Source: an uncultured Bacteroidota bacterium
Lineage (GTDB): Bacteria; Bacteroidota; Bacteroidia; JABEUT01
Assembly: GCA_963767125.1 (NCBI GenBank)
Contig: CAVYDB010000047.1
Coordinates: 2,585 to 66,584, forward strand
Direction of reading: 5' to 3'
DNA length: 64,000 bases
Under the pieces are notes generated by a model. It ran no database searches, had not been told where the DNA came from, and worked only from the letters and a program-made list of their open reading frames with translations. A program made the position numbers and the translations under genes. Of this stretch, positions 14,709 through 58,977 are shown in pieces (position 1 is the first letter of the stretch; every line of letters begins with the position of its first letter).

Positions 14709-15026
14709 ATGTCTATTCATAAAAAGTGGTCAAATTACACCAGAAAAAACGCTTCCGCAGAACCTGAAAATTATGGTGTTTACGAAATTGGCGATATTGA
14801 AACTGGGGCAATTTTATATATTGGAGAAGGTAATATACGTTCAGGTTTATTAGCACATACTCCTGATGGAGGAAAGAATAAACATGTTTCAATATTCGGC
14901 ACTTCTATTGTAGGCTTATATGGTTACCGTTTTGAGGTTACTGATACCCGGGAAAAAGCTAAGCTAAGACAAAAAGAATTATTAAAGGACTTTCAAAAAG
15001 ACCTATCATTCCCTTCCTCGTTTTAA
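14709..15026 (+). CDS. Small divergent GIY-YIG-like protein
   Basis: GVY-x10-YIG motif (YGVYEIGDIETGAILYIGEG); residues at the usual catalytic Arg and Glu positions are not clearly conserved. Confidence 0.55.
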   Translation: MSIHKKWSNYTRKNASAEPENYGVYEIGDIETGAILYIGEGNIRSGLLAHTPDGGKNKHVSIFGTSIVGLYGYRFEVTDTREKAKLRQKELLKDFQKDLSFPSSF

Positions 15027-15179
15027 CCAAAAACAGGAGAAGTCAGCTACCCCGGTGTTTATATAATTGTTGCTGTTATTTTTCACTTTGTATTCTCGCT
15101 TTCTTAATTAAGTGCCATTTTGAGAAATGGCTTTCAACGTTATAGACGTTACCTATCACTTTTAGTTTTCACTGCCTTG

Positions 15180-15307
15180 TGCCCCCGCTAGGAATCCCCG
15201 TCCGAACGGGTCATCCGGGCGGGGAACATAGATCAGAAGTTCCGGAAACTTCCATACTATCCCCGCCCGACTGAATGTCGTTCGGGCAGGCGTTGTACTA
15301 TAAAGCC
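15180..15307 (-). pseudogene. tRNA-Arg(CCG) pseudo-copy with 29-nt D-loop and 27-nt T-loop hairpin insertions; additional T-stem and acceptor mismatches
   Basis: Aligns to tRNA 15940-16011 after removing the two inserts; first 10 nt overlap the end of the GIY-YIG ORF. Confidence 0.85.
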
Positions 15308-15543
15308 TTTAGTTTCTTTTGTAGAAATCTTCTTCCTGCTGCCGATTTAAAATATTTTTCGCGATTAATAGCCTCCTCCCTTGATTCAAATTCTTCTGAA
15401 TAACTTATTTTAAAGGGAATAAAGGGTTTTATTGAGGATGTCTTCCCTGAATTGTGTTCCTTTAATCTTATTTCAAGATTCTCGCAATGTCCTTTGTAAA
15501 AGTATTCATGGTTAAGGCTTTTTAAAACATACGCATAAAACAT
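15298..15543 (-). CDS. Stand-alone GIY-YIG nuclease (YhbQ/UPF0213-like), copy 2
   Basis: Y3-A-Y5, Y16-K-G18, R26 (RLKEHN), E62 (AINREKYFKS). Confidence 0.9.
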   Translation of the reverse strand: MFYAYVLKSLNHEYFYKGHCENLEIRLKEHNSGKTSSIKPFIPFKISYSEEFESREEAINREKYFKSAAGRRFLQKKLKAL

Positions 15544-15559
15544 TTTAAAGGTTTTAATG

Positions 15560-15687
15560 TGGCCCCGCTAGGAATCCCCGTCCGAACGGGTCATCCGGGC
15601 GGGGAACCTAGATCAGAAGTTCCGGAAACTTCCATACTATCCCCGCCCGACTGAATGTCGTTCGGGCAGGCGTTGTACTATAAAACC
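15560..15687 (-). pseudogene. tRNA-Arg(CCG) pseudo-copy with 29-nt D-loop and 27-nt T-loop hairpin insertions
   Basis: Identical to the intact tRNA from position 8 onward apart from the two inserts. Confidence 0.85.
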
Positions 15688-15923
15688 TTTAGTTTCTTTT
15701 GTAGAAATCTTCTTCCTGCTGCCGATTTAAAATATTTTTCGCGATTAATAGCCTCCTCCCTTGATTCAAATTCTTCTGAATAACTTATTTTAAAGGGAAT
15801 AAAGGGTTTTATTGAGGATGTCTTCCCTGAATTGTGTTCCTTTAATCTTATTTCAAGATTCTCGCAATGTCCTTTGTAAAAGTATTCATGGTTAAGGCTT
15901 TTTAAAACATAAGCATAAAACAT
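15678..15923 (-). CDS. Stand-alone GIY-YIG nuclease (YhbQ/UPF0213-like), copy 1
   Basis: 80/81 aa identical to copy 2; ATG lies 16 nt after the tRNA discriminator base. Confidence 0.9.
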   Translation of the reverse strand: MFYAYVLKSLNHEYFYKGHCENLEIRLKEHNSGKTSSIKPFIPFKISYSEEFESREEAINREKYFKSAAGRRFLQKKLKVL

Positions 15924-15939
15924 TCTAAAGATTTTAATG

Positions 15940-16011
15940 TGGCCCCGCTAGGAATCGAACCTAGATCAGAAGTTCCGGAAACTTCCATACTATCCGTTGT
16001 ACTACAGAGCC
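15940..16011 (-). tRNA. tRNA-Arg(CCG), 72 nt, CCA not encoded
   Basis: Cloverleaf folded by hand: acceptor GGCTCTG/CGGGGCC, D arm GTAC/GTAT, anticodon arm GAAGT-TTCCGGA-ACTTC, T arm CTAGG-TTCGATT-CCTAG. Confidence 0.95.
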
Positions 16012-16715
16012 AATTTTTTAAAGGATTGTAAAAATAGAAAGAATTTATAATTTTAATAAAATGACAGTAAAAAGAGTTTCGTAAACTTTCATACTATCCC
16101 CGCCCGACTGAACGTCGTTCGGGCAGGCGTTGTACTACAGAGCCAATTTTTTAAAGGATTGTAAAAATAGAAAGAATTTATAATTTTAATAAAATGACAG
16201 TAAAAAGAGTTTCGTAAACTTTCATACTATCCCCGCCCGACTGAACGTCGTTCGGGCAGGCGTTGTACTACAGAGCCAATTTTTTAAAGGATTGTAAAAA
16301 TAGAAAGAATTTATAATTTTAATAAAATGACAGTAAAAAGAGTTTCGTAAACTTTCATACTATCCCCGCCCGACTGAACGTCGTTCGGGCAGGCGTTGTA
16401 CTACAGAGCCAATTTTTTAAAGGATTGTAAAAATAGAAAGAATTTATAATTTTAATAAAATGACAGTAAAAAGAGTTTCGTAAACTTTCATACTATCCCC
16501 GCCCGACTGAACGTCGTTCGGGCAGGCGTTGTATTACAGAGCCAATTTTTTAAAGGATTGTAAAAATAGAAGGATTTTATAATTTTAATAAAATGACAGT
16601 GAAAAGAGTTTCGCAAACTTTCATACTATCCCCGCCCGACTGAACGTCGTTCGGGCAGGCGTTGTACTACAGAGCCAATTTTTTAAAGGATTGTAAAAAT
16701 AGAAAGAATTTATAA
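16012..16715 (-). repeat. Tandem array of five 133-bp units plus a 39-bp partial unit; each unit is the tRNA upstream region plus a tRNA-Arg 5' half with D-loop insert
   Basis: Unit ends (agagcc) at 16144, 16277, 16410, 16543, 16676; units 1-3 identical, five substitutions confined to 16534-16614. Confidence 0.95.
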
Positions 16716-16725
16716 GTGGATTTTT

Positions 16726-19700
16726 CTATTCTTCATCTTCAACCTCATGTAACGCAACATGCAAGTGATTATCTTTTACAAAATTGCACCATTGGCAATC
16801 TTCCTTACCGCATCCTTTACTAAATTCATGGTTTTGTATTTTTTGCCAGGTATCGGTAATTTGGTCAAGAACTATGGCAATATCTTCCTTACTTATAATT
16901 ATTTTCTCTGCTTTATATTCGTCTTTTACCGGCTCTATAAAATCAAACTCAGCACTAATGGCATCCCAATCATTATATTTCTGATTATCTAATAATATTT
17001 TATAGAATACTGCCTGTCTCCAATAATCGCCCCCAACGGTGTCATCACCAATGGGTCCTTTTAGTTTCTTTCTGGCATTATGCATATCTGCCGGTCTTAT
17101 AATCCACCACGTTTACTTTTTTACCATCAAATTCAAGCTTATCTAACTTACCATTCAGGGGCACTCCTTCAACTTCCACATTACGGATATTCTTCTCCAG
17201 AATTACAATCTTATTCCACTTTTTAATGTAAAAGTTATAATAAGGTGGCAATATTTTATCACCATATTCCAGTCTGCGGTTATATTGTTCTTTAGTAAAT
17301 GATTCTCTATTACGATACATAAACCGCCTGAAATCATCCATCATTTTCTCTTTAGATGGAAATATGTTGCCTTGAGCTTTCATCTTCTCAAACAAAGCCT
17401 GTAACGTAGAGTGTACTGCACTCCCAAATGCCATTGACTCTCCTTTGGCAGCAGGCACTCTAATTAAATTCTGATAGTAAAATTTAATCGGGCAATCCAA
17501 GTAATTATTCAGATGGGTTACACTTAAAGAATAATTTTGAAGTAAACTATCTAAATAGTTTTTATCAACCAATTCTATTTGAGGTACAGCCTTGGCAGTA
17601 TATTGTAATTCGAGGTATTTAATAAGTATGTTTTCCTCCGCCTTTTCTTCTTTTACTTCAATACTTGTTCCTTCCATAATCTCCCCTACAAAGGCAGAAC
17701 GCTCCATCCCCTTATTCTTATTTTCATTATCCTGTACCGAATATGAAATTGTAAGGTGTGTTTTAGCCCTGGTCATAGCAACATAAAAAAGCCTCCTTGC
17801 TTCTTCCAATTCATTTACCTCATATTTTTCAGAGGAGAAATTATCGGGCAATTTAAACTCATACTGGGAAGAAGATTTTTTATCATCCCAGATATTTTTA
17901 TTACAGCCAATTAAAAATACGTATTCATATTCTGTGCCCTTGGAGCCATGAGCAGTAACAAGATTAACCCCATCAGCGGTGGAAGACACTTTTACCAAAT
18001 CGAGCCGGATACGATTGTTCTGCATGGTTTCAATCATGTCGAGTAATCGTTGCAAGCTGATGGATGGGTCTTTATGGGTTTCCCCTTTTATAAAATCAAA
18101 CAGACCAGTAATAACCTGCATCAGCCAGGGCTTTTCGTCAGAATTTAAAACATAGTTCAATATTCCTGCCTCACGCACCACTTCTTCAAATAAGCCCTGT
18201 AAAGTAAGATTCGGCGAGGCTTTAATAAGGCTTTCCAATATATTACTAACTCTTTTTATTTCACTTACTTCCTCCGTACTGAATAAATCGGGCTTGGACG
18301 AACTCCCCTCTTCACTGATAGCACGGCGAATTGATGTTCTCTCATTGCGGTTACCATAGTTTTTCTGGGCGACCTGCAAGCTTAATCTTGCTATATCAAT
18401 GGCCGGAATAGTAAAGAAATCAAAATGCAAAATTTCAAATAGCATTTCATCTCCGCTATATGCCACATCTATTTCTGCGGCAATAAATTCAAGGATTTTA
18501 AGTATTTTATGAACGAATGGCAATTCCAATAAATTCACATTCCGTTTCATATTGTAGCTAATGCTCTTCTTGTCTAAGTAGCCTGATAGCTCGTCCACCT
18601 GCTTATGGTTACGGTATATAACTGCAATTTCAGAAGGGTCTATTTTGTCTTTAACAAGTAATTCTTCTATTTTATGCGCAATACATATTGTTTCATTAGA
18701 AGGATTGGGATACTCGATAATTTGGGGTAGTATTTTTAAATCCTTCACTACAGGATTGGAAGCAACTAAGTTTTTATCCTGAGACACCCTCTCTTTATTA
18801 TGCTCAATAAGGACTTTCGCAGCATCTAATACAGCCTGGGTAGAGCGATAGTTTTCTGTCAATACCACTTTGAAAAGCAGGCTGGAATACTCGTTGGCAA
18901 AACCACGAATATTTTCCACGTTCGCATCCTGAAAAGAAAATATAGATTGGTCATCATCACCCACCACAAACACATTCGGGGCATCCCAATAATGGATAAG
19001 ATGCTCGAGTAATTTCTTTTGCGAGCCGCTTGTATCCTGGAATTCATCTACCAAAAAATATAAAAACCGCTCCTGGTAATTGAGCAGAATATTATTGTTT
19101 TCTTCAAAGGCTTTCAGCACCCACAAAATCATATCATCAAAGGTGTATCGCCCTCTCTCTTGCATCATTTCATCATAGGTAGGGTACAGATTAACTGCTT
19201 CCCGCAGTTTTTCCATTCTTTCTTTTTCCTCTTTTATCCTATCTTCATTCGGCTCTCCTGCCTTATATTCCTTGTAATTTCTTTTATAAAAAAATCCATC
19301 TTTACCAGGGAGTTCTGCCAAATAAGCATCTATTCTCCCATTCAAAAATTCCAATGTCCATGCTTCTTTTTTTATCAGTGAAAAAAGATTCTTCACTTTG
19401 GGTATTTCATAATTTACTTCACCTTTAAATCTCTTTAGCAGGCTATCATTTGGAAGGTTGCTTAATAATTCCTTGAATAATTCTATTTCCTCTAACTCTG
19501 AAATAGCTTCTAAATTTTGCCTGCCGAAATAAGAGAGATTATCTTGAATCACCTCATTACAAAATGAATGAAAAGTGTGAATATTTACCCTATAAGCTGC
19601 CGGTCCTATGAGCTTGAATAGCCTGTTACGCATTTCAACCCTTCCGGTATCGGTATAAGTAAGACAAAGAATGCTATGTGGGGGAGTGTCGGTCTGCTGC

Positions 19701-19864
19701 AATATTTTACCTATCCGCGTAGCCAGAATTTGGGTCTTTCCGGTTCCCGGTCCTGCTATAACAAGCACAGGTCCCTCGATGTGTTCAACAGCCTGGCGTT
19801 GGGCTTCATTAAGCTTTTGAAAAGCCCTTGTGAAAGCTAAATCAACTAATTTATTATTCATCAT
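16726..19864 (-). CDS. UvrD/PcrA-type SF1 helicase fused to PD-(D/E)xK nuclease (AdnAB/AddA-like); one +1 frameshift near 17085
   Basis: AGPGTGKT, VDEFQD, VGDDDQSI, TAHGSKGTE, EARRLFYVAMTRAK; nuclease motifs GKLDKLE and VVDYKTG; continuation ORF 16726-17085 has QAVFY and CGKEDCQWC. Confidence 0.85.
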
Positions 19865-56805: not shown

Positions 56806-58977
56806 ATGAAAAAGAATTTTATTCTCTTATTTGTATTGGTTTGTTTAGGAAGTATAGAAACTACGGCACAATATAGATATACCGTTCTGCATTATTTCAA
56901 TGATTCTGCAGGAGGCAACCCTAAAGGTGCATTAACTCTATCTAATGGAGTTTTATATGGAATGACAAGAGCCGGCGGTGCAAATCATGACGGAATAATA
57001 TTCTCTATGGATACTGCCGGTACCATCTATACCGACTTGATGGATTTCAATGGAATAAATGGCTCAAGTGCGGAAGGCTCATTAACTTTCTCCCGGAGCA
57101 CCATGTTTGGAATGACCTCTCTGGGAGGAGCCAGTGGTAAAGGTTGTATTTTCAAAATATTAACCAATGGCAGCGGATATGCTGACTTGCTTGATTTTGA
57201 TTCTGCCAATGGCGCTAACCCACAGGATAATGTTACCTTATCAGGTAATAAAATGTATGGAATGACTTTAAATGGAGGGGCACATAACTGCGGGCTTATT
57301 TTTTCGATTGATACCAATGGGGCTAATTATGTTGACCTGCTTGATTTCGACACAGCCAACGGAGCATACCCCTATGGTTCTCTAACCCTTGCAGGTAATG
57401 TATTATATGGTACGGCATCCTTAGGAGGAGACTCTGTTAACGGTTGCGTATTTTCAGTTCATATTGATGGTTCAAACTATAAAATTATGCATAGTTTTAG
57501 TGGAATACGGGGCAGCAGACCTTACGACCCTGTGGGCTCTTTACTGCTTGCCAAAAATATGTTATATGGCATGACCAGGCGAAATTATGCCCTTAATCCC
57601 TGGGGTAACAATGGTGCCATTTTTAAAATAGATACCAATGGAAATACATTTACTGAAATGGCAGATCCAAATGCACTGCCGCAGGGTTCATTCATACTGA
57701 AAGATAGCGTACTTTACAGCATGACACCAACGAATGCCGGGAGTAACTTATATCCGCACTTTGAGGCGGGAGATGTTTTCTCAATAGATACTGGTGGAGG
57801 TGGTTACGAGAGCATTCATGGTTTTATAAGACATGGATACCTGGGCGATGGAGGATGCAAGTCGCTGACACTGGCAACGAATGGATTTTATGGTATGACT
57901 ATGAATGGCGCTGACAGTACCAGTAGAATTTACACTGGTAGCGGAGTCATTTTTAAATTGGTAGATACCGGTGTTTATTATCCACAGGTAACTATGAGCA
58001 TCCACAATGTTTCATGCAACGGAGGCAGTAATGGAACAGCAATTGCCAGTGTAAGCGGTGGATTTTCTCCTTATACTTACTTCTGGCAGCCAAGTGGAAA
58101 TTCTACCGATAGTATAGGCGGGCTGAGTGCCGGAACTTATACTCTTTCTGTAACTGGAAATAATGATTCAACTACCAATGTTTATGTTACCATAACACAA
58201 CCGGCAATATTGAATCCACTAGGCTATATTATTGCCAATGTATCTTGCAATGGTGGAAATAATGGTATTGATTCTGTTTCAGGGAATGGCGGTGCATCTC
58301 CCTTTACCTATCTCTGGAACGATGCCAATAGCCAAACTACAGCCACGGCTATCGGGCTAAGTGCAGGAACTTATACAGTTAGTGTTTCTGATTCTTGCGG
58401 TAATTCTGCCACAACATCTGTTATAATAACACAACCAATAGCCCTGACTATGATGGCAGATTCATCTGACGCCACATCCGGAAATTGTGATGGTTCCGCA
58501 TGGGTTATAGTCAATGGAGGCACAACCCCCTATACCTATTCATGGACGGGAGGACTTACTACCGATACCATATTAAACCAGTGTACCGGAGATTATTGCT
58601 GCACAATTGCTGACGTTAACGGATGCATAGATAGTATTTGTGTAAATATTGATGTTTCGACCGGAACCAATCAGTTAGAAGGGGAAAGTGAAAAGGTAAA
58701 AGTTTATCCAAACCCGAATGATGGTCTTTTTACAATTACGCTCGGTCATGCCGAACTTGCCCGCCCGGATGAATCGGTCGGACGGGTTTCGGCATCCCAA
58801 CCTATTGTAAGGATATTTAATGTATTGGGGCAGCAGGTATATTTTGCGACCCTGAAACAAGTTCTGGGTGACAATTTCATTGATATTTCGTCTCAGCCTG
58901 ACGGGGTTTATTTTTATAGAGTATTAAGTGAAACTGGAGGATTAATAGGAGAAGGAAAGCTGGTGATAGTGAAATAA
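56806..58977 (+). CDS. T9SS-secreted protein with tandem G..P.G.L...LYGMT..GG beta-propeller repeats (TIGR03803/GloVer-like) and SprB-like repeats (start moved from 56725)
   Basis: Signal MKKNFILLF preceded by TAATTTTG (56781-56788); VSCNGG..G...GG..PYTY.W repeats; VYPNPN...GVYFYRV...GKLVIVK. Confidence 0.85.
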   Translation: MKKNFILLFVLVCLGSIETTAQYRYTVLHYFNDSAGGNPKGALTLSNGVLYGMTRAGGANHDGIIFSMDTAGTIYTDLMDFNGINGSSAEGSLTFSRSTMFGMTSLGGASGKGCIFKILTNGSGYADLLDFDSANGANPQDNVTLSGNKMYGMTLNGGAHNCGLIFSIDTNGANYVDLLDFDTANGAYPYGSLTLAGNVLYGTASLGGDSVNGCVFSVHIDGSNYKIMHSFSGIRGSRPYDPVGSLLLAKNMLYGMTRRNYALNPWGNNGAIFKIDTNGNTFTEMADPNALPQGSFILKDSVLYSMTPTNAGSNLYPHFEAGDVFSIDTGGGGYESIHGFIRHGYLGDGGCKSLTLATNGFYGMTMNGADSTSRIYTGSGVIFKLVDTGVYYPQVTMSIHNVSCNGGSNGTAIASVSGGFSPYTYFWQPSGNSTDSIGGLSAGTYTLSVTGNNDSTTNVYVTITQPAILNPLGYIIANVSCNGGNNGIDSVSGNGGASPFTYLWNDANSQTTATAIGLSAGTYTVSVSDSCGNSATTSVIITQPIALTMMADSSDATSGNCDGSAWVIVNGGTTPYTYSWTGGLTTDTILNQCTGDYCCTIADVNGCIDSICVNIDVSTGTNQLEGESEKVKVYPNPNDGLFTITLGHAELARPDESVGRVSASQPIVRIFNVLGQQVYFATLKQVLGDNFIDISSQPDGVYFYRVLSETGGLIGEGKLVIVK
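58745..58796 (+). repeat. REP-like palindrome GTCATGCCGAACTTG|TTTCGGCATC carrying a 27-nt hairpin insert (58760-58786), translated in frame
   Basis: Insert is 24/27 identical to the tRNA T-loop insert. Confidence 0.8.

Follow-up and report, generated by a model that had tools for sequence, protein, structure and literature searches.

A single-domain GIY-YIG nuclease gene and a GC hairpin nested in a tRNA-Arg locus form a layout that recurs at tRNA genes across Bacteroidota and looks like a selfish element

We analyzed a 64,000-nt stretch of DNA from an uncultured Bacteroidota bacterium (assembly GCA_963767125.1, contig CAVYDB010000047.1), referred to below as the window. The source genome is a MAG of 49 contigs that is 79% complete and has 38 tRNA genes in 3.55 Mb. 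The locus under study contains the following features, all on the minus strand.

16726..19864, minus strand: UvrD-type helicase gene with a PD-(D/E)XK nuclease domain, the conserved upstream neighbor, split by a frameshift at 17078/17085
16014..16715, minus strand: array of 5.4 units of 133 bp (sequence reading and Tandem Repeats Finder)
16631..16659, minus strand: hairpin h1, CCTGCCCGAACGACGTTCAGTCGGGCGGG, 29 nt, inserted between tRNA nt 17/18
16498-16526, 16365-16393, 16232-16260, 16099-16127, 15642-15670 and 15262-15290, minus strand: six further copies of h1
15939..16011, minus strand: intact tRNA-Arg(CCG) (ARAGORN; Rfam RF00005, 58.6 bits), with its own promoter copy upstream
15678..15923, minus strand: GIY-YIG ORF copy 1, 81 aa (Pfam PF01541, E 4e-13)
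15560..15680, minus strand: pseudo-tRNA 1, tRNA-Arg nt 8-73 interrupted by h1 (D-loop, 15642-15670) and h2 (T-loop, 15576-15603)
15576..15603, minus strand: hairpin h2 (CCCGCCCGGATGACCCGTTCGGACGGG; CCCGCCCGGATGACCCGTTCGGACGGGG), between tRNA nt 56/57; second copy at 15196-15223
15298..15543, minus strand: GIY-YIG ORF copy 2, 81 aa (Pfam PF01541, E 4e-13), with A80 where copy 1 has V80
15180..15300, minus strand: pseudo-tRNA 2, built like pseudo-tRNA 1 (h1 at 15262-15290, h2 at 15196-15223), with two substitutions

As assembled, the minus strand reads in order 5.4 units of 133 bp, the intact tRNA-Arg(CCG) and two units of 380 bp. Tandem Repeats Finder reports both repeats with 98% matches, the first at 15995-16715 (period 133, 5.4 copies) and the second at 15178-15956 (period 380, 2.0 copies). 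Eight tRNA-derived pieces and two nuclease ORFs are packed into 1.5 kb; the initial annotation had counted them correctly, and Tandem Repeats Finder, ARAGORN and Pfam put them where it had placed them. Its five repeats of an upstream region plus a tRNA 5' half stand as repeats and are refined here to 5.4 units with tRNA nt 1-17, a hairpin and a diverged nt 18-~43. The flanking genes encode an ABC transporter, a DUF7508 protein and the UvrD/PD-(D/E)XK helicase, and the absence of an integrase, transposase or reverse transcriptase noted earlier holds for them. Near 46.4 kb of the window, there is likewise no transposase ORF of 110 aa or longer. NCBIfam yielded a family neither for the nuclease nor for the DUF7508 protein. 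The latter shows a GIY..YIG-like pattern by eye and was rejected as a GIY-YIG relative by an insignificant profile comparison (probability 3.6%).

Each 133-bp unit consists of the tRNA promoter region (with a TAnnTTTAC box), tRNA-Arg nt 1-17, the 29-nt hairpin h1, the diverged nt 18-~43, which carries substitutions and the anticodon ACG rather than CCG, and a T-rich tail that includes ATTAAAAT, the spacer 3' of the intact tRNA. All five array units have their own promoter copy; the three inner ones are identical, and the outer pair shows 1 and 4 differences. The 380-bp units combine the 81-aa GIY-YIG ORF with a tRNA copy that lacks nt 1-7 and has hairpins in its D-loop and T-loop, and 6 of the 380 positions distinguish one cassette from the other. 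Both pseudo-tRNAs begin at tRNA nt 8 and carry h1 between nt 17/18 and h2 between nt 56/57. Pseudo-tRNA 1 has the sequence of the intact tRNA apart from these two inserts, its 5' acceptor strand being absent, and the predicted pseudo-tRNA fold keeps the D-arm, anticodon arm and T-arm alongside two extra hairpins. ARAGORN and Rfam each call a single tRNA at the locus, the one at 15939-16011(-), which is the only functional-looking copy there. Because Rfam matches the intact tRNA alone, the pseudo-tRNAs and half-units belong to no described RNA family.

The ORFs sit tightly between these tRNA sequences. The ATG of ORF 1 lies 15 nt past the end of the tRNA as called by ARAGORN, and in both cassettes the stop codon TAG is U8-A9-G10 of the next tRNA copy. 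Lying on the tRNA's strand, 9-15 nt behind a tRNA and with no space for a promoter, the ORF should be transcribed from the tRNA promoter.

Both ORFs score 49.9 bits against PF01541 (cut-off, 22.6), with the domain covering residues 1-70. The protein is a bare 81-aa domain without an extra DNA-binding domain, and the median ORF length in its clade is 80 aa. Y5 of the GIY motif, Y16 and G18 of YIG, R26, H30 and the metal-binding E62 are invariant among 20 homologues (32-71% identity), and dN/dS of the ORF is ~0.12, with dS saturated. The ORF is intact, has its catalytic residues and is under purifying selection. An AlphaFold model of the 81-aa protein (pLDDT 95.4; elements E2-9, E15-20, H23-31, E44-52, H55-66 and H68-78) matches the beta-beta-alpha-beta-alpha GIY-YIG fold. 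Its top Foldseek matches are the UPF0213 protein BH0048 (1ZG2), Slx1 (TM 0.66-0.70) and I-TevI (TM 0.53), and the nearest solved relatives by sequence are the UPF0213 proteins 1ZG2 and 1YWL (E 5e-16 and 4e-14). The nuclease is a single-domain GIY-YIG protein of the Slx1/UPF0213-like kind. An I-TevI/Seg-type homing endonuclease with a separate DNA-binding domain was considered and rejected, given the bare 81-aa domain and the weak I-TevI match (E 6e-3, TM 0.53).

Hairpin h2 belongs to a dispersed family of the form CCCGYCCG..CGGRCGGG, and h1 is the same family in reverse orientation. The source genome contains 20 strict copies of the family, versus 0 for a reversed-pattern control. Dispersed hairpins occur in both orientations inside protein genes, in frame in long ORFs, and in the RNase P RNA gene. 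At tRNA genes, a hairpin of 26-29 nt usually interrupts the spare copy at nt 17 (51 cases), its orientation being fixed in 29 of 30 classifiable cases, and h2-family hairpins split the spare tRNA at nt 17 in ~50 loci of other genomes. Insert positions nevertheless vary among loci (nt 17, 40, 44, 50 or 55; elsewhere the entire anticodon or D arm is replaced), and nested and tandem hairpins also occur. A 27-nt hairpin is identical in nine loci, the ORF DNA of which is 59-75% identical, and hairpin variants are separated by compensatory stem changes. The hairpins thus make up a family whose sequence is conserved better than that of the ORF.

Hairpin and nuclease are linked in position, in occurrence and in descent. 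Within 500 bp of ORF 1, h1 lies upstream (16099-16127) and both h1 and h2 lie downstream; a family hairpin is found at this distance (≤500 bp) in 63 of 80 loci and on both sides in 19, with 21 loci cut by contig ends. The family is present in all five sampled relatives with an Arg-clade nuclease and in 14 of 15 further carriers, at 1-116 copies, with 116 in Segetibacter sp. 3557_3; of the remaining 56 relatives, only 6 have at least two copies, and reversed-pattern controls gave 0-1. Two genomes depart from this link: G046 has two hairpins and no nuclease hit, and G075, a carrier, lacks a strict hairpin. The hairpins fall into four types, and different cassettes of one genome bear different types. 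With the 26 of 50 loci that could be typed by regular expression, hairpin type requires 4 changes on the nuclease tree, compared with 13.9 (minimum, 9) in 1,000 shuffles; tRNA type requires 19, compared with 27.1 in shuffles. Hairpin type follows the nuclease lineage, and tRNA identity changes more often, with at least 13 switches of the anticodon label between CCG and CCT across the clade.

The association with tRNA genes extends well beyond the window. Close homologues were found by a search with a 4-sequence alignment, and in 70 of the best 80 of these 287 a tRNA-Arg(CCG/CCT) on the same strand adjoins the ORF. For the best hits in 61 related genomes, for which 1.5 kb was fetched on each side, a same-strand tRNA is present in 24 of 30, mostly within 100 nt, and it accompanies 13 of 20 further copies; these distant homologues together (37/50) lie at other tRNAs. 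The chance expectation is ~1%, as estimated from the 38 tRNA genes in 3.55 Mb. The initial annotation had named tRNA enrichment near homologues and copy-number variation among close strains among its checks; the former is borne out by these counts and the latter by the site states described below. In most loci, partial tRNA duplicates flank the ORF. The stop codon coincides with tRNA nt 8-10 in 37 of 71 loci, and about 14 loci have an ORF that ends in an intact tRNA. A hairpin disables the spare tRNA copy, and one intact copy is always kept.

Within the genus, the orthologous site, whose identity is fixed by the upstream helicase gene (16726..19864), occurs in empty, relic and filled states. 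It is empty in nine same-genus genomes, where the helicase 3' end is followed by a single tRNA-Arg(CCG). The intact tRNA-Arg(CCG) of the window is 95-100% identical to the single tRNA at the orthologous site (11 same-genus genomes). Single units of the half-tRNA type are present at this site in genomes G002 and G016, and the full part order recurs in a second species of the genus. Both kinds of amplification are found elsewhere: other genomes also have arrays of half-tRNA units, including a 9.4-copy array in G063 on a 681-kb long-read contig, whose hairpin is identical in sequence to h1, and tandem cassettes occur in G014 and G030. Divergent copies lie at different tRNAs, several per genome, and decayed and fragmentary copies were seen as well. 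Since tblastn searches of phage and plasmid collections returned no copy of the nuclease, no vector for its spread was identified, and no recent transfer event was caught.

The closest parallel is the Ssn family. SsnA of Neisseria meningitidis (NMV_0044/NMB0047) is a 94-aa protein with a single GIY-YIG domain and catalytic residues Y6, Y17 and E64, the gene of which is flanked by NTS/SRM hairpin repeats (Chenal et al., Nat Commun 2025, PMC11893778). In ssDNA, it binds a hairpin repeat of 28 nt and makes its cut a few nucleotides upstream, a site-specific cleavage beside the hairpin with no activity on dsDNA or RNA, and it does not bind RNA in vitro (PMC11893778). The repeats lie within 500 bp of the gene, on both sides in many members (PMC11893778). 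Both systems have one GIY-YIG domain of 80-95 aa without a DNA-binding domain, a near-equal catalytic spacing (Y6/Y17/E64 versus Y5/Y16/E62 here), a gene flanked by 20-50-nt hairpin repeats that are also dispersed in the genome, and a directional hairpin whose sequence covaries with the nuclease. The resemblance to Ssn (cd10448) is one of features; the nearest solved relatives of the present protein are UPF0213 proteins. In contrast to Ssn, the present module is nested in a tRNA gene and involves partial tRNA duplication, the report on Ssn (PMC11893778) never using the word tRNA, and hairpin copies mostly number tens instead of hundreds. The SRM motif HGTCWYN(0-2)YYVSBRHN(0-5)WNVSBRGN(0-2)RNCYNB matches neither h1, h2 nor the common nt-17 hairpin on either strand, and it occurs nowhere in the window and twice in the genome as a whole.

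Other known systems share single aspects of the locus. Phage T4 carries SegB, a free-standing GIY-YIG homing endonuclease, among its clustered tRNA genes, where it promotes its own inheritance and that of flanking tRNA sequence via cleavage and recombinational repair (PMC2330249). Both are intron-less GIY-YIG genes among tRNA genes; however, SegB is larger, phage borne and a double-strand cutter, and it lies between distinct tRNA genes, not inside a duplicated one, without a hairpin partner or pseudo-tRNA. Slx1 and the UPF0213 proteins (YhbQ type; BH0048 1ZG2, EF2693 1YWL) are nearest by sequence and fold. Slx1 is a structure-specific nuclease that, unlike the present protein, needs Slx4 and has a RING domain, and UPF0213 proteins differ in having no assigned function and, in the literature consulted, no reported tRNA-gene nesting or hairpin partner. 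An Slx1-like domain has been found fused to the tRNA Gm18 methyltransferase TrmH (PMC1564403).

REP/REPIN-RAYT systems (IS200/IS605-type Y1) likewise consist of dispersed short palindromic repeats, recognized as single-stranded DNA hairpins, and one dedicated single-copy enzyme gene, and Rickettsia palindromic elements share the in-frame insertions in protein genes. The present enzyme differs in being a hydrolytic GIY-YIG nuclease and not a DNA-rejoining HUH transposase, and the module differs in being tRNA anchored. Membership in the REP/RAYT class was rejected: Y1 (RAYT-like) transposase genes (Y1_Tnp) occur in 17 of 18 genus genomes whatever their hairpin count, and none lies at the locus.

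In fungal mitochondria, free-standing GIY-YIG ORFs supply the host gene with a replacement end (Allomyces atp6), and double-hairpin elements, which are GC-rich mini-hairpins, are mobile in genomes with such ORFs. Here, too, a duplicated part of the target gene keeps function and a displaced pseudo-copy remains; the Allomyces atp6-type ORFs differ in being organellar and in having protein-coding targets. We know of no fixed nuclease-hairpin pairing among these fungal ORFs and double-hairpin elements. Literature searches found no description of tRNA-nested GIY-YIG cassettes. The initial annotation's statement that it knew of no description holds, given the Ssn precedent (PMC11893778), for the tRNA-nested architecture alone and not for the GIY-YIG/hairpin pairing.

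The module layout recurs at tRNA genes across Bacteroidota, and it looks like a selfish element. On balance we lean towards a selfish module in the tRNA-Arg(CCG) gene, in which an Ssn-like single-domain GIY-YIG nuclease would be paired with a cognate 27-29-nt GC hairpin and would amplify by recombination. The tRNA association and the site states support the earlier suggestion of a minimal selfish unit that amplifies by recombination at tRNA genes, a suggestion that missed the GC hairpins, its central partner. The module would ride the tRNA promoter. By analogy to Ssn, the protein would bind its own hairpin in single-stranded DNA and nick nearby; we infer cleavage by the predicted nuclease, with its strand and site, from this analogy. 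Such nicks may provoke recombination and template switching among the tRNA-derived repeats, from which both the half-tRNA array of 5.4 copies and the doubled cassette would result. Conserved tRNA sequence borders the ORF on either side and could serve as portable homology, through which the cassette would enter the empty tRNA gene of another cell while sparing tRNA function. Rejoining DNA is beyond a hydrolytic nuclease, so that any spread has to depend on recombination by the host.

More tentatively, the 80-aa nuclease and the 27-nt hairpin could together amount to a mobile element, complete and autonomous at ~0.3 kb, in which a GIY-YIG enzyme takes the part that RAYT has in the RAYT/REPIN partnership, although we hold this to be doubtful. 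The tRNA-nested ORF with its hairpin-marked tRNA copy would then be the master copy, and its nonautonomous offspring would be the hairpins that stand alone in protein genes, in spare tRNA copies and in the gene for RNase P RNA. Local amplification and entry into new tRNA genes would both follow from ssDNA nicking at tRNA genes, which are highly transcribed, and from subsequent repair by the host.

These readings have to be weighed against explanations in which hairpin, tRNA pieces or nuclease play other parts. The hairpins might be independent REP-like mini-elements, for instance moved by RAYT-like Y1 transposases, that pile up in dispensable sequence such as a redundant tRNA copy, with the GIY-YIG gene as an unrelated free-standing homing-type gene. 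The Y1_Tnp genes in 17 of 18 genus genomes, the hairpins at cassette-unrelated places (in frame in long ORFs and in the RNase P RNA gene) and the nested or tandem hairpins, which suggest mobility of their own, fit this idea. It is nonetheless unlikely, as Y1_Tnp presence does not track hairpin count, hairpin type follows the nuclease clade and differs between cassettes of one genome, the hairpin has the same tRNA position and orientation in dozens of loci, and its family is nearly always present in Arg-clade nuclease carriers and rarely in noncarriers. Alternatively, the partial tRNAs might act as RNA, either as an inhibitor, decoy or guide of the nuclease, comparable to an RNA-antitoxin-like array, or through elbow hairpins that block the RNase P cut 7 nt before the stop codon and give the mRNA a stable 3' end. 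RNase P recognizes the tRNA elbow, formed by the D-loop and T-loop, and the inserts here lie in precisely these two parts. Further points in its favor are the ORF, co-oriented with and abutting the tRNAs so that the pieces should be cotranscribed, the promoter copy in each of the five array units, the three arms that the pseudo-tRNA is predicted to retain and the stop codon inside the next tRNA copy in 37 of 71 loci. We give an RNA role little credence, however: protein genes and other places contain the hairpins in either orientation, the insert position varies among loci (nt 17, 40, 44, 50, 55 or whole-arm replacement), the ORF ends in an intact tRNA in about 14 loci, and SsnA, the sole characterized relative, does not bind RNA (PMC11893778).

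Purifying selection on the ORF, the repair-type structure-specific nucleases Slx1 and UPF0213 among its relatives, and the lack of copies in phages and plasmids (tblastn) would also suit a domesticated host gene, for example one for repair or recombination, expressed from tRNA operons, with the tRNA fragments and arrays as passive by-products of slippage. That is improbable for a gene that is patchy within one genus with empty orthologous sites, has divergent copies at different tRNAs of one genome as well as decayed and fragmentary ones, and changes its tRNA partner frequently while the hairpin stays with the nuclease lineage. Lastly, the architecture, or at least its copy numbers, might stem from short-read metagenome assembly: the genome is a 49-contig MAG that is 79% complete, many homologous loci lie at contig ends, and short reads cannot count three identical 133-bp units. 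Yet the part order is repeated in another species of this genus, in the genomes of the isolates Segetibacter sp. 3557_3, Pedobacter segetis SD-b, Agriterribacter humi YJ03 and Algoriphagus locisalis DSM 23445, and on long-read contigs (0.6-1 Mb), one of which has an array of nine copies, and the outer units and the two cassettes bear distinguishing substitutions. An artefact is thus very improbable, and only copy number is really at stake.

The window is a good specimen of the proposed selfish module, as it combines both kinds of amplification with hairpins at both elbow loops and a site that is empty, relic or filled within the genus. If this reading is true, many Bacteroidota genes annotated as "GIY-YIG nuclease family protein" beside tRNAs would be minimal selfish modules instead of repair genes, each with a defined DNA partner. 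Many pseudo-tRNAs would find an explanation, as would odd tRNA calls (the source genome has a "tRNA-Stop"), contig breaks at tRNA loci and in-gene mini-hairpins. The Ssn principle, a bare nuclease domain that reads an ssDNA hairpin, would be extended to a new clade and genomic niche, and the four hairpin types would supply natural nuclease/target pairs. Should the autonomous-element reading apply, these modules would be among the smallest self-encoded mobile elements and a source of sequence-specific ssDNA nucleases with known cognate sites. The selfish module would also offer a testable case of how an essential conserved gene can be occupied safely by carrying a replacement copy.

Direct reading of the sequence bore out the layout that the initial annotation had proposed for window positions 15180-16715, minus strand: a half-tRNA array, an intact tRNA-Arg(CCG) and two cassettes, each a GIY-YIG ORF followed by a pseudo-tRNA.

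Repeats and tRNA gene of the locus (window coordinates)
15995-16715: 133-bp repeat, 5.4 copies, 98% matched (Tandem Repeats Finder)
15178-15956: 380-bp repeat, 2.0 copies, 98% matched (Tandem Repeats Finder)
15939-16011, minus strand: tRNA-Arg(CCG), the sole tRNA called by ARAGORN and Rfam

Each 133-bp unit opens with the tRNA upstream region, which includes a conserved TAnnTTTAC box, and continues with tRNA nt 1-17, hairpin h1 (29 nt, CCTGCCCGAACGACGTTCAGTCGGGCGGG), nt 18-~43 and a T-rich tail. Substitutions in nt 18-~43 give these units the anticodon ACG, and the three inner units show no differences. The 380-bp unit runs from a 15-nt spacer through the ORF into a tRNA copy with two hairpins, h1 between nt 17 and 18 and h2 (CCCGCCCGGATGACCCGTTCGGACGGG) between nt 56 and 57. 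Because this copy begins at nt 8, the TAG stop codon of the ORF is U8-A9-G10 of the tRNA. In its predicted fold, the pseudo-tRNA has no acceptor stem but retains the D-arm, anticodon arm and T-arm.

Upstream of the tRNA, a UvrD-type helicase/PD-(D/E)XK nuclease gene contains a +1 shift at window positions 17078-17085. The resulting frames of 928 aa and 119 aa break inside the PD-(D/E)XK domain (profile positions 1-147 and 160-242), marking either a pseudogene or a MAG sequencing error. The convergent neighbor encodes a 105-aa DUF7508 protein (window 14709-15026, plus strand; PF24348, E 7e-12) with a GIY..YIG-like pattern (YGVYEI..ILYIGEG..H..R.KE). Its profile comparison with the nuclease family was, however, not significant (probability 3.6%).

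Both 81-aa ORFs of the locus contain a GIY-YIG domain (PF01541, E 4e-13). The ORF is under selection, with a dN/dS of about 0.12 and invariant catalytic residues. The structure model is confident (pLDDT 95); among solved proteins, the nuclease is closest to BH0048 and EF2693 of the UPF0213 group, then to Slx1, with I-TevI distant. No nuclease copies were found in the phage and plasmid collections searched. The source genome holds a third, distant GIY-YIG domain (33% identical) at C31:45408-45599, on another contig, 3.4 kb before a tRNA-Ile/Ala cluster; it opens a 210-aa open frame whose tail is made of repeats (GVSTSSTPVTATDNPVAELVEATPN...).

The nuclease gene is associated with tRNA genes. 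Homologues are present in 34 of the 61 related genomes searched and, with 1.5 kb examined per side, 24 of the 30 best loci have a tRNA gene near the ORF; it shares the ORF's strand in every case and in most lies within 100 nt. Given 38 tRNA genes in the 3.55-Mb source genome, the chance expectation of a nearby tRNA is an estimated ~1%. A same-strand tRNA likewise accompanies 13 of 20 additional copies from multi-copy genomes. The tRNA identities near ORFs comprise Arg, Pro, Ala, Asp, Ser, Leu, Asn, Glu, Met, Val and Gly. A scan of one genome per species yielded 287 close relatives of the window's protein; at 70 of the best 80 of these, a same-strand tRNA-Arg (CCG or CCT only) is present, usually 9-15 nt upstream of the ATG. 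These loci span Chitinophagales, Sphingobacteriales, Cytophagales, Bacteroidales and Flavobacteriales and include isolate genomes and long-read contigs.

At most loci, BLAST of the intact tRNA against its own locus revealed a partial or interrupted second tRNA copy on the ORF's far side. In 51 cases, a 26-29-nt insert interrupts this spare copy at nt 17; other split points are nt 50 (9 cases), nt 55 (6) and nt 40 (4). In 37/71 loci, the ORF's stop codon coincides precisely with nt 8-10 of the downstream tRNA copy. Two layouts occur: an intact tRNA, the ORF and the spare copy, or a truncated 5' tRNA part with hairpin, the ORF and the intact tRNA. Non-Arg loci follow the same arrangement rules with different hairpins; at some, a hairpin stands in place of the anticodon arm (tRNA-Ala) or of the D-arm (tRNA-Pro). 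In other genomes, tRNA copies hold nested hairpins of 54 nt and tandem ones of 63-121 nt.

ARAGORN also called a "tRNA-Stop(tta)" in the source genome at C31:49064-49141 (L164:365-441 in the extracted locus), after tRNA-Ile and tRNA-Ala in a 16S-23S spacer. It was rejected as a suppressor tRNA, being a pseudo-copy of tRNA-Ala(TGC) that is almost unchanged in its 3' part. Its anticodon arm is swapped for a hairpin (CCTGACATTTAGAGTCAGG), and it looks like the ORF-less footprint of another cassette.

The hairpin behaves as a partner of the nuclease rather than as debris. An identical 27-nt insert (CCCGCCCGGCTGACGCCAGTCGGACGG) occurs in nine loci whose ORFs are just 59-75% identical in DNA, synonymous sites are saturated (median dS 1.7), and stem differences between hairpin variants are compensatory. 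At nt 17, all but one of 30 classifiable cases share one orientation; h1 of the window is among the rare reversed hairpins. Four hairpin types occur near ORFs, and different cassettes of one genome can bear different types. Mapped onto a 50-nuclease tree, hairpin type requires 4 changes where 1000 shuffles gave 13.9 (minimum 9), and tRNA identity requires 19 where shuffles gave 27.1. Thus, the hairpin stays with its nuclease lineage, whereas the tRNA partner switches more freely. Within the Arg clade, the close relatives at tRNA-Arg, the CCG/CCT anticodon label changes at least 13 times.

Copies of the hairpin family are also dispersed. The strict pattern CCCGYCCG..CGGRCGGG has 20 copies in the source genome, against 0 for a reversed-pattern control. 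It is present in 5/5 sampled relatives with an Arg-clade nuclease and in 14/15 further carriers (1 to 116 copies); at least two copies occur in only 6/56 of the remaining relatives. Roughly eleven of the 20 fall within long ORFs (571-591 aa) that belong to two paralogue families, a figure that counts independent insertions and gene duplication together. The C-termini of both families resemble T9SS sorting domains. With a hairpin length of 27 nt, the reading frame of the host ORFs is preserved; Rickettsia palindromic elements likewise insert in frame.

Strict hairpin copies tied to long ORFs, and the RNase P RNA gene (C, contigs of the source genome)
window 58760-58786: hairpin copy
C7:188320: hairpin copy
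C7:191928: hairpin copy
C7:207183: hairpin copy
C14:39558: hairpin copy
C31:79097: hairpin copy
C31:95418: hairpin copy
C35:4405: hairpin copy
C49:230289: hairpin copy
C7:332005-332427 (L162:406-828 in the extracted locus), minus strand: single RNase P RNA gene (Rfam RF00010, 204.9 bits)

Within this RNA gene, at C7:332139-332166, a family hairpin (CCCGTCCGAACCGGTTCATCCGGGCGGG, RNA sense) caps a peripheral helix around model positions 247-260. Hairpins therefore also enter a presumably functional stable-RNA gene.

Within the genus, the site is filled in some genomes and empty in others. Nine genomes have a single tRNA-Arg(CCG) without ORF, hairpin or duplicate, sharing the upstream helicase gene and promoter box with the filled site. 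The layout is complete in genome G009, and in G017 the tRNA and the ORF start are present at a contig end. Two genomes hold an ORF-less relic, one unit (promoter, nt 1-17, hairpin, nt 18-32) ahead of the intact tRNA. Despite a conserved helicase gene upstream, 11 same-genus genomes (L112-L123) each differ in the sequence downstream of tRNA-Arg(CCG), so this 3' side is generally variable in the genus.

Amplification is recurrent. Cassettes stand in tandem in two related genomes (G014 and G030), and several loci have half-tRNA arrays. A long-read contig of 681 kb from a Sphingobacteriales MAG (G063:C1) carries tRNA-Arg(CCG) and, after it, 9.4 tandem copies of an 88-bp unit (L161:655-1470) comprising the post-tRNA spacer, the ORF's ATG, tRNA-Arg nt ~33-56, a hairpin and nt 57-73. 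This hairpin, in the T-loop, has the exact h1 sequence, and at least four nuclease copies or fragments, whole and broken, follow the array. The array is a 3'-half counterpart of the window's 5'-half array. The source genome is a MAG (3.55 Mb, 49 contigs, 79% complete), and an assembly artefact is very improbable, given that arrays and tandem cassettes recur elsewhere, one on the long-read contig. Because of this recurrence, the arrays are real biology, although copy number in the source MAG is uncertain.

We lean toward reading the locus as a tRNA-promoter-driven, hairpin-nicking module that amplifies by recombination among tRNA-derived repeats. The ORF would be transcribed from the tRNA promoter, and the nuclease would nick a single strand beside the hairpin. 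Such nicks may provoke recombination among the tRNA-derived repeats, generating arrays, and the conserved tRNA sequence could provide homology for entering empty tRNA genes. It is unlikely that the hairpins are independent, REP-like elements: their type follows the nuclease tree. Similarly doubtful is an action of the tRNA-like pieces at the RNA level, including shielding of the stop codon from RNase P, although the three arms predicted for the pseudo-tRNA and the many stop codons at nt 8-10 would fit it. The nuclease has still less chance of being a domesticated host gene; selection on the ORF would fit this, but same-genus sites occur without it.

The favored module has a published parallel in the Ssn family, 94-aa single-domain GIY-YIG proteins (Chenal et al. 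2025, PMC11893778). Ssn proteins bind a 28-nt hairpin repeat solely in its single-stranded DNA form, cleaving a few nucleotides upstream of it; their genes are flanked by such repeats, which are also genome-dispersed, and the authors liken Ssn to an insertion sequence and REP/RAYT (PMC11893778). The tRNA-nested module is similar in every testable feature, the resemblance in activity being one of analogy, but its hairpins do not fit the published repeat motif. The nearest homing-type analogue is SegB of T4 (PMC2330249), and an old note of an Slx1-like domain fused to a Gm18 tRNA methyltransferase (PMC1564403) offers a curious parallel. The Ssn paper (PMC11893778) makes no mention of tRNA, and literature searches returned no account of GIY-YIG genes lodged within duplicated tRNA genes of bacteria. 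The tRNA-nested arrangement appears to be new, and the nuclease-hairpin module itself is of a recently recognized kind.
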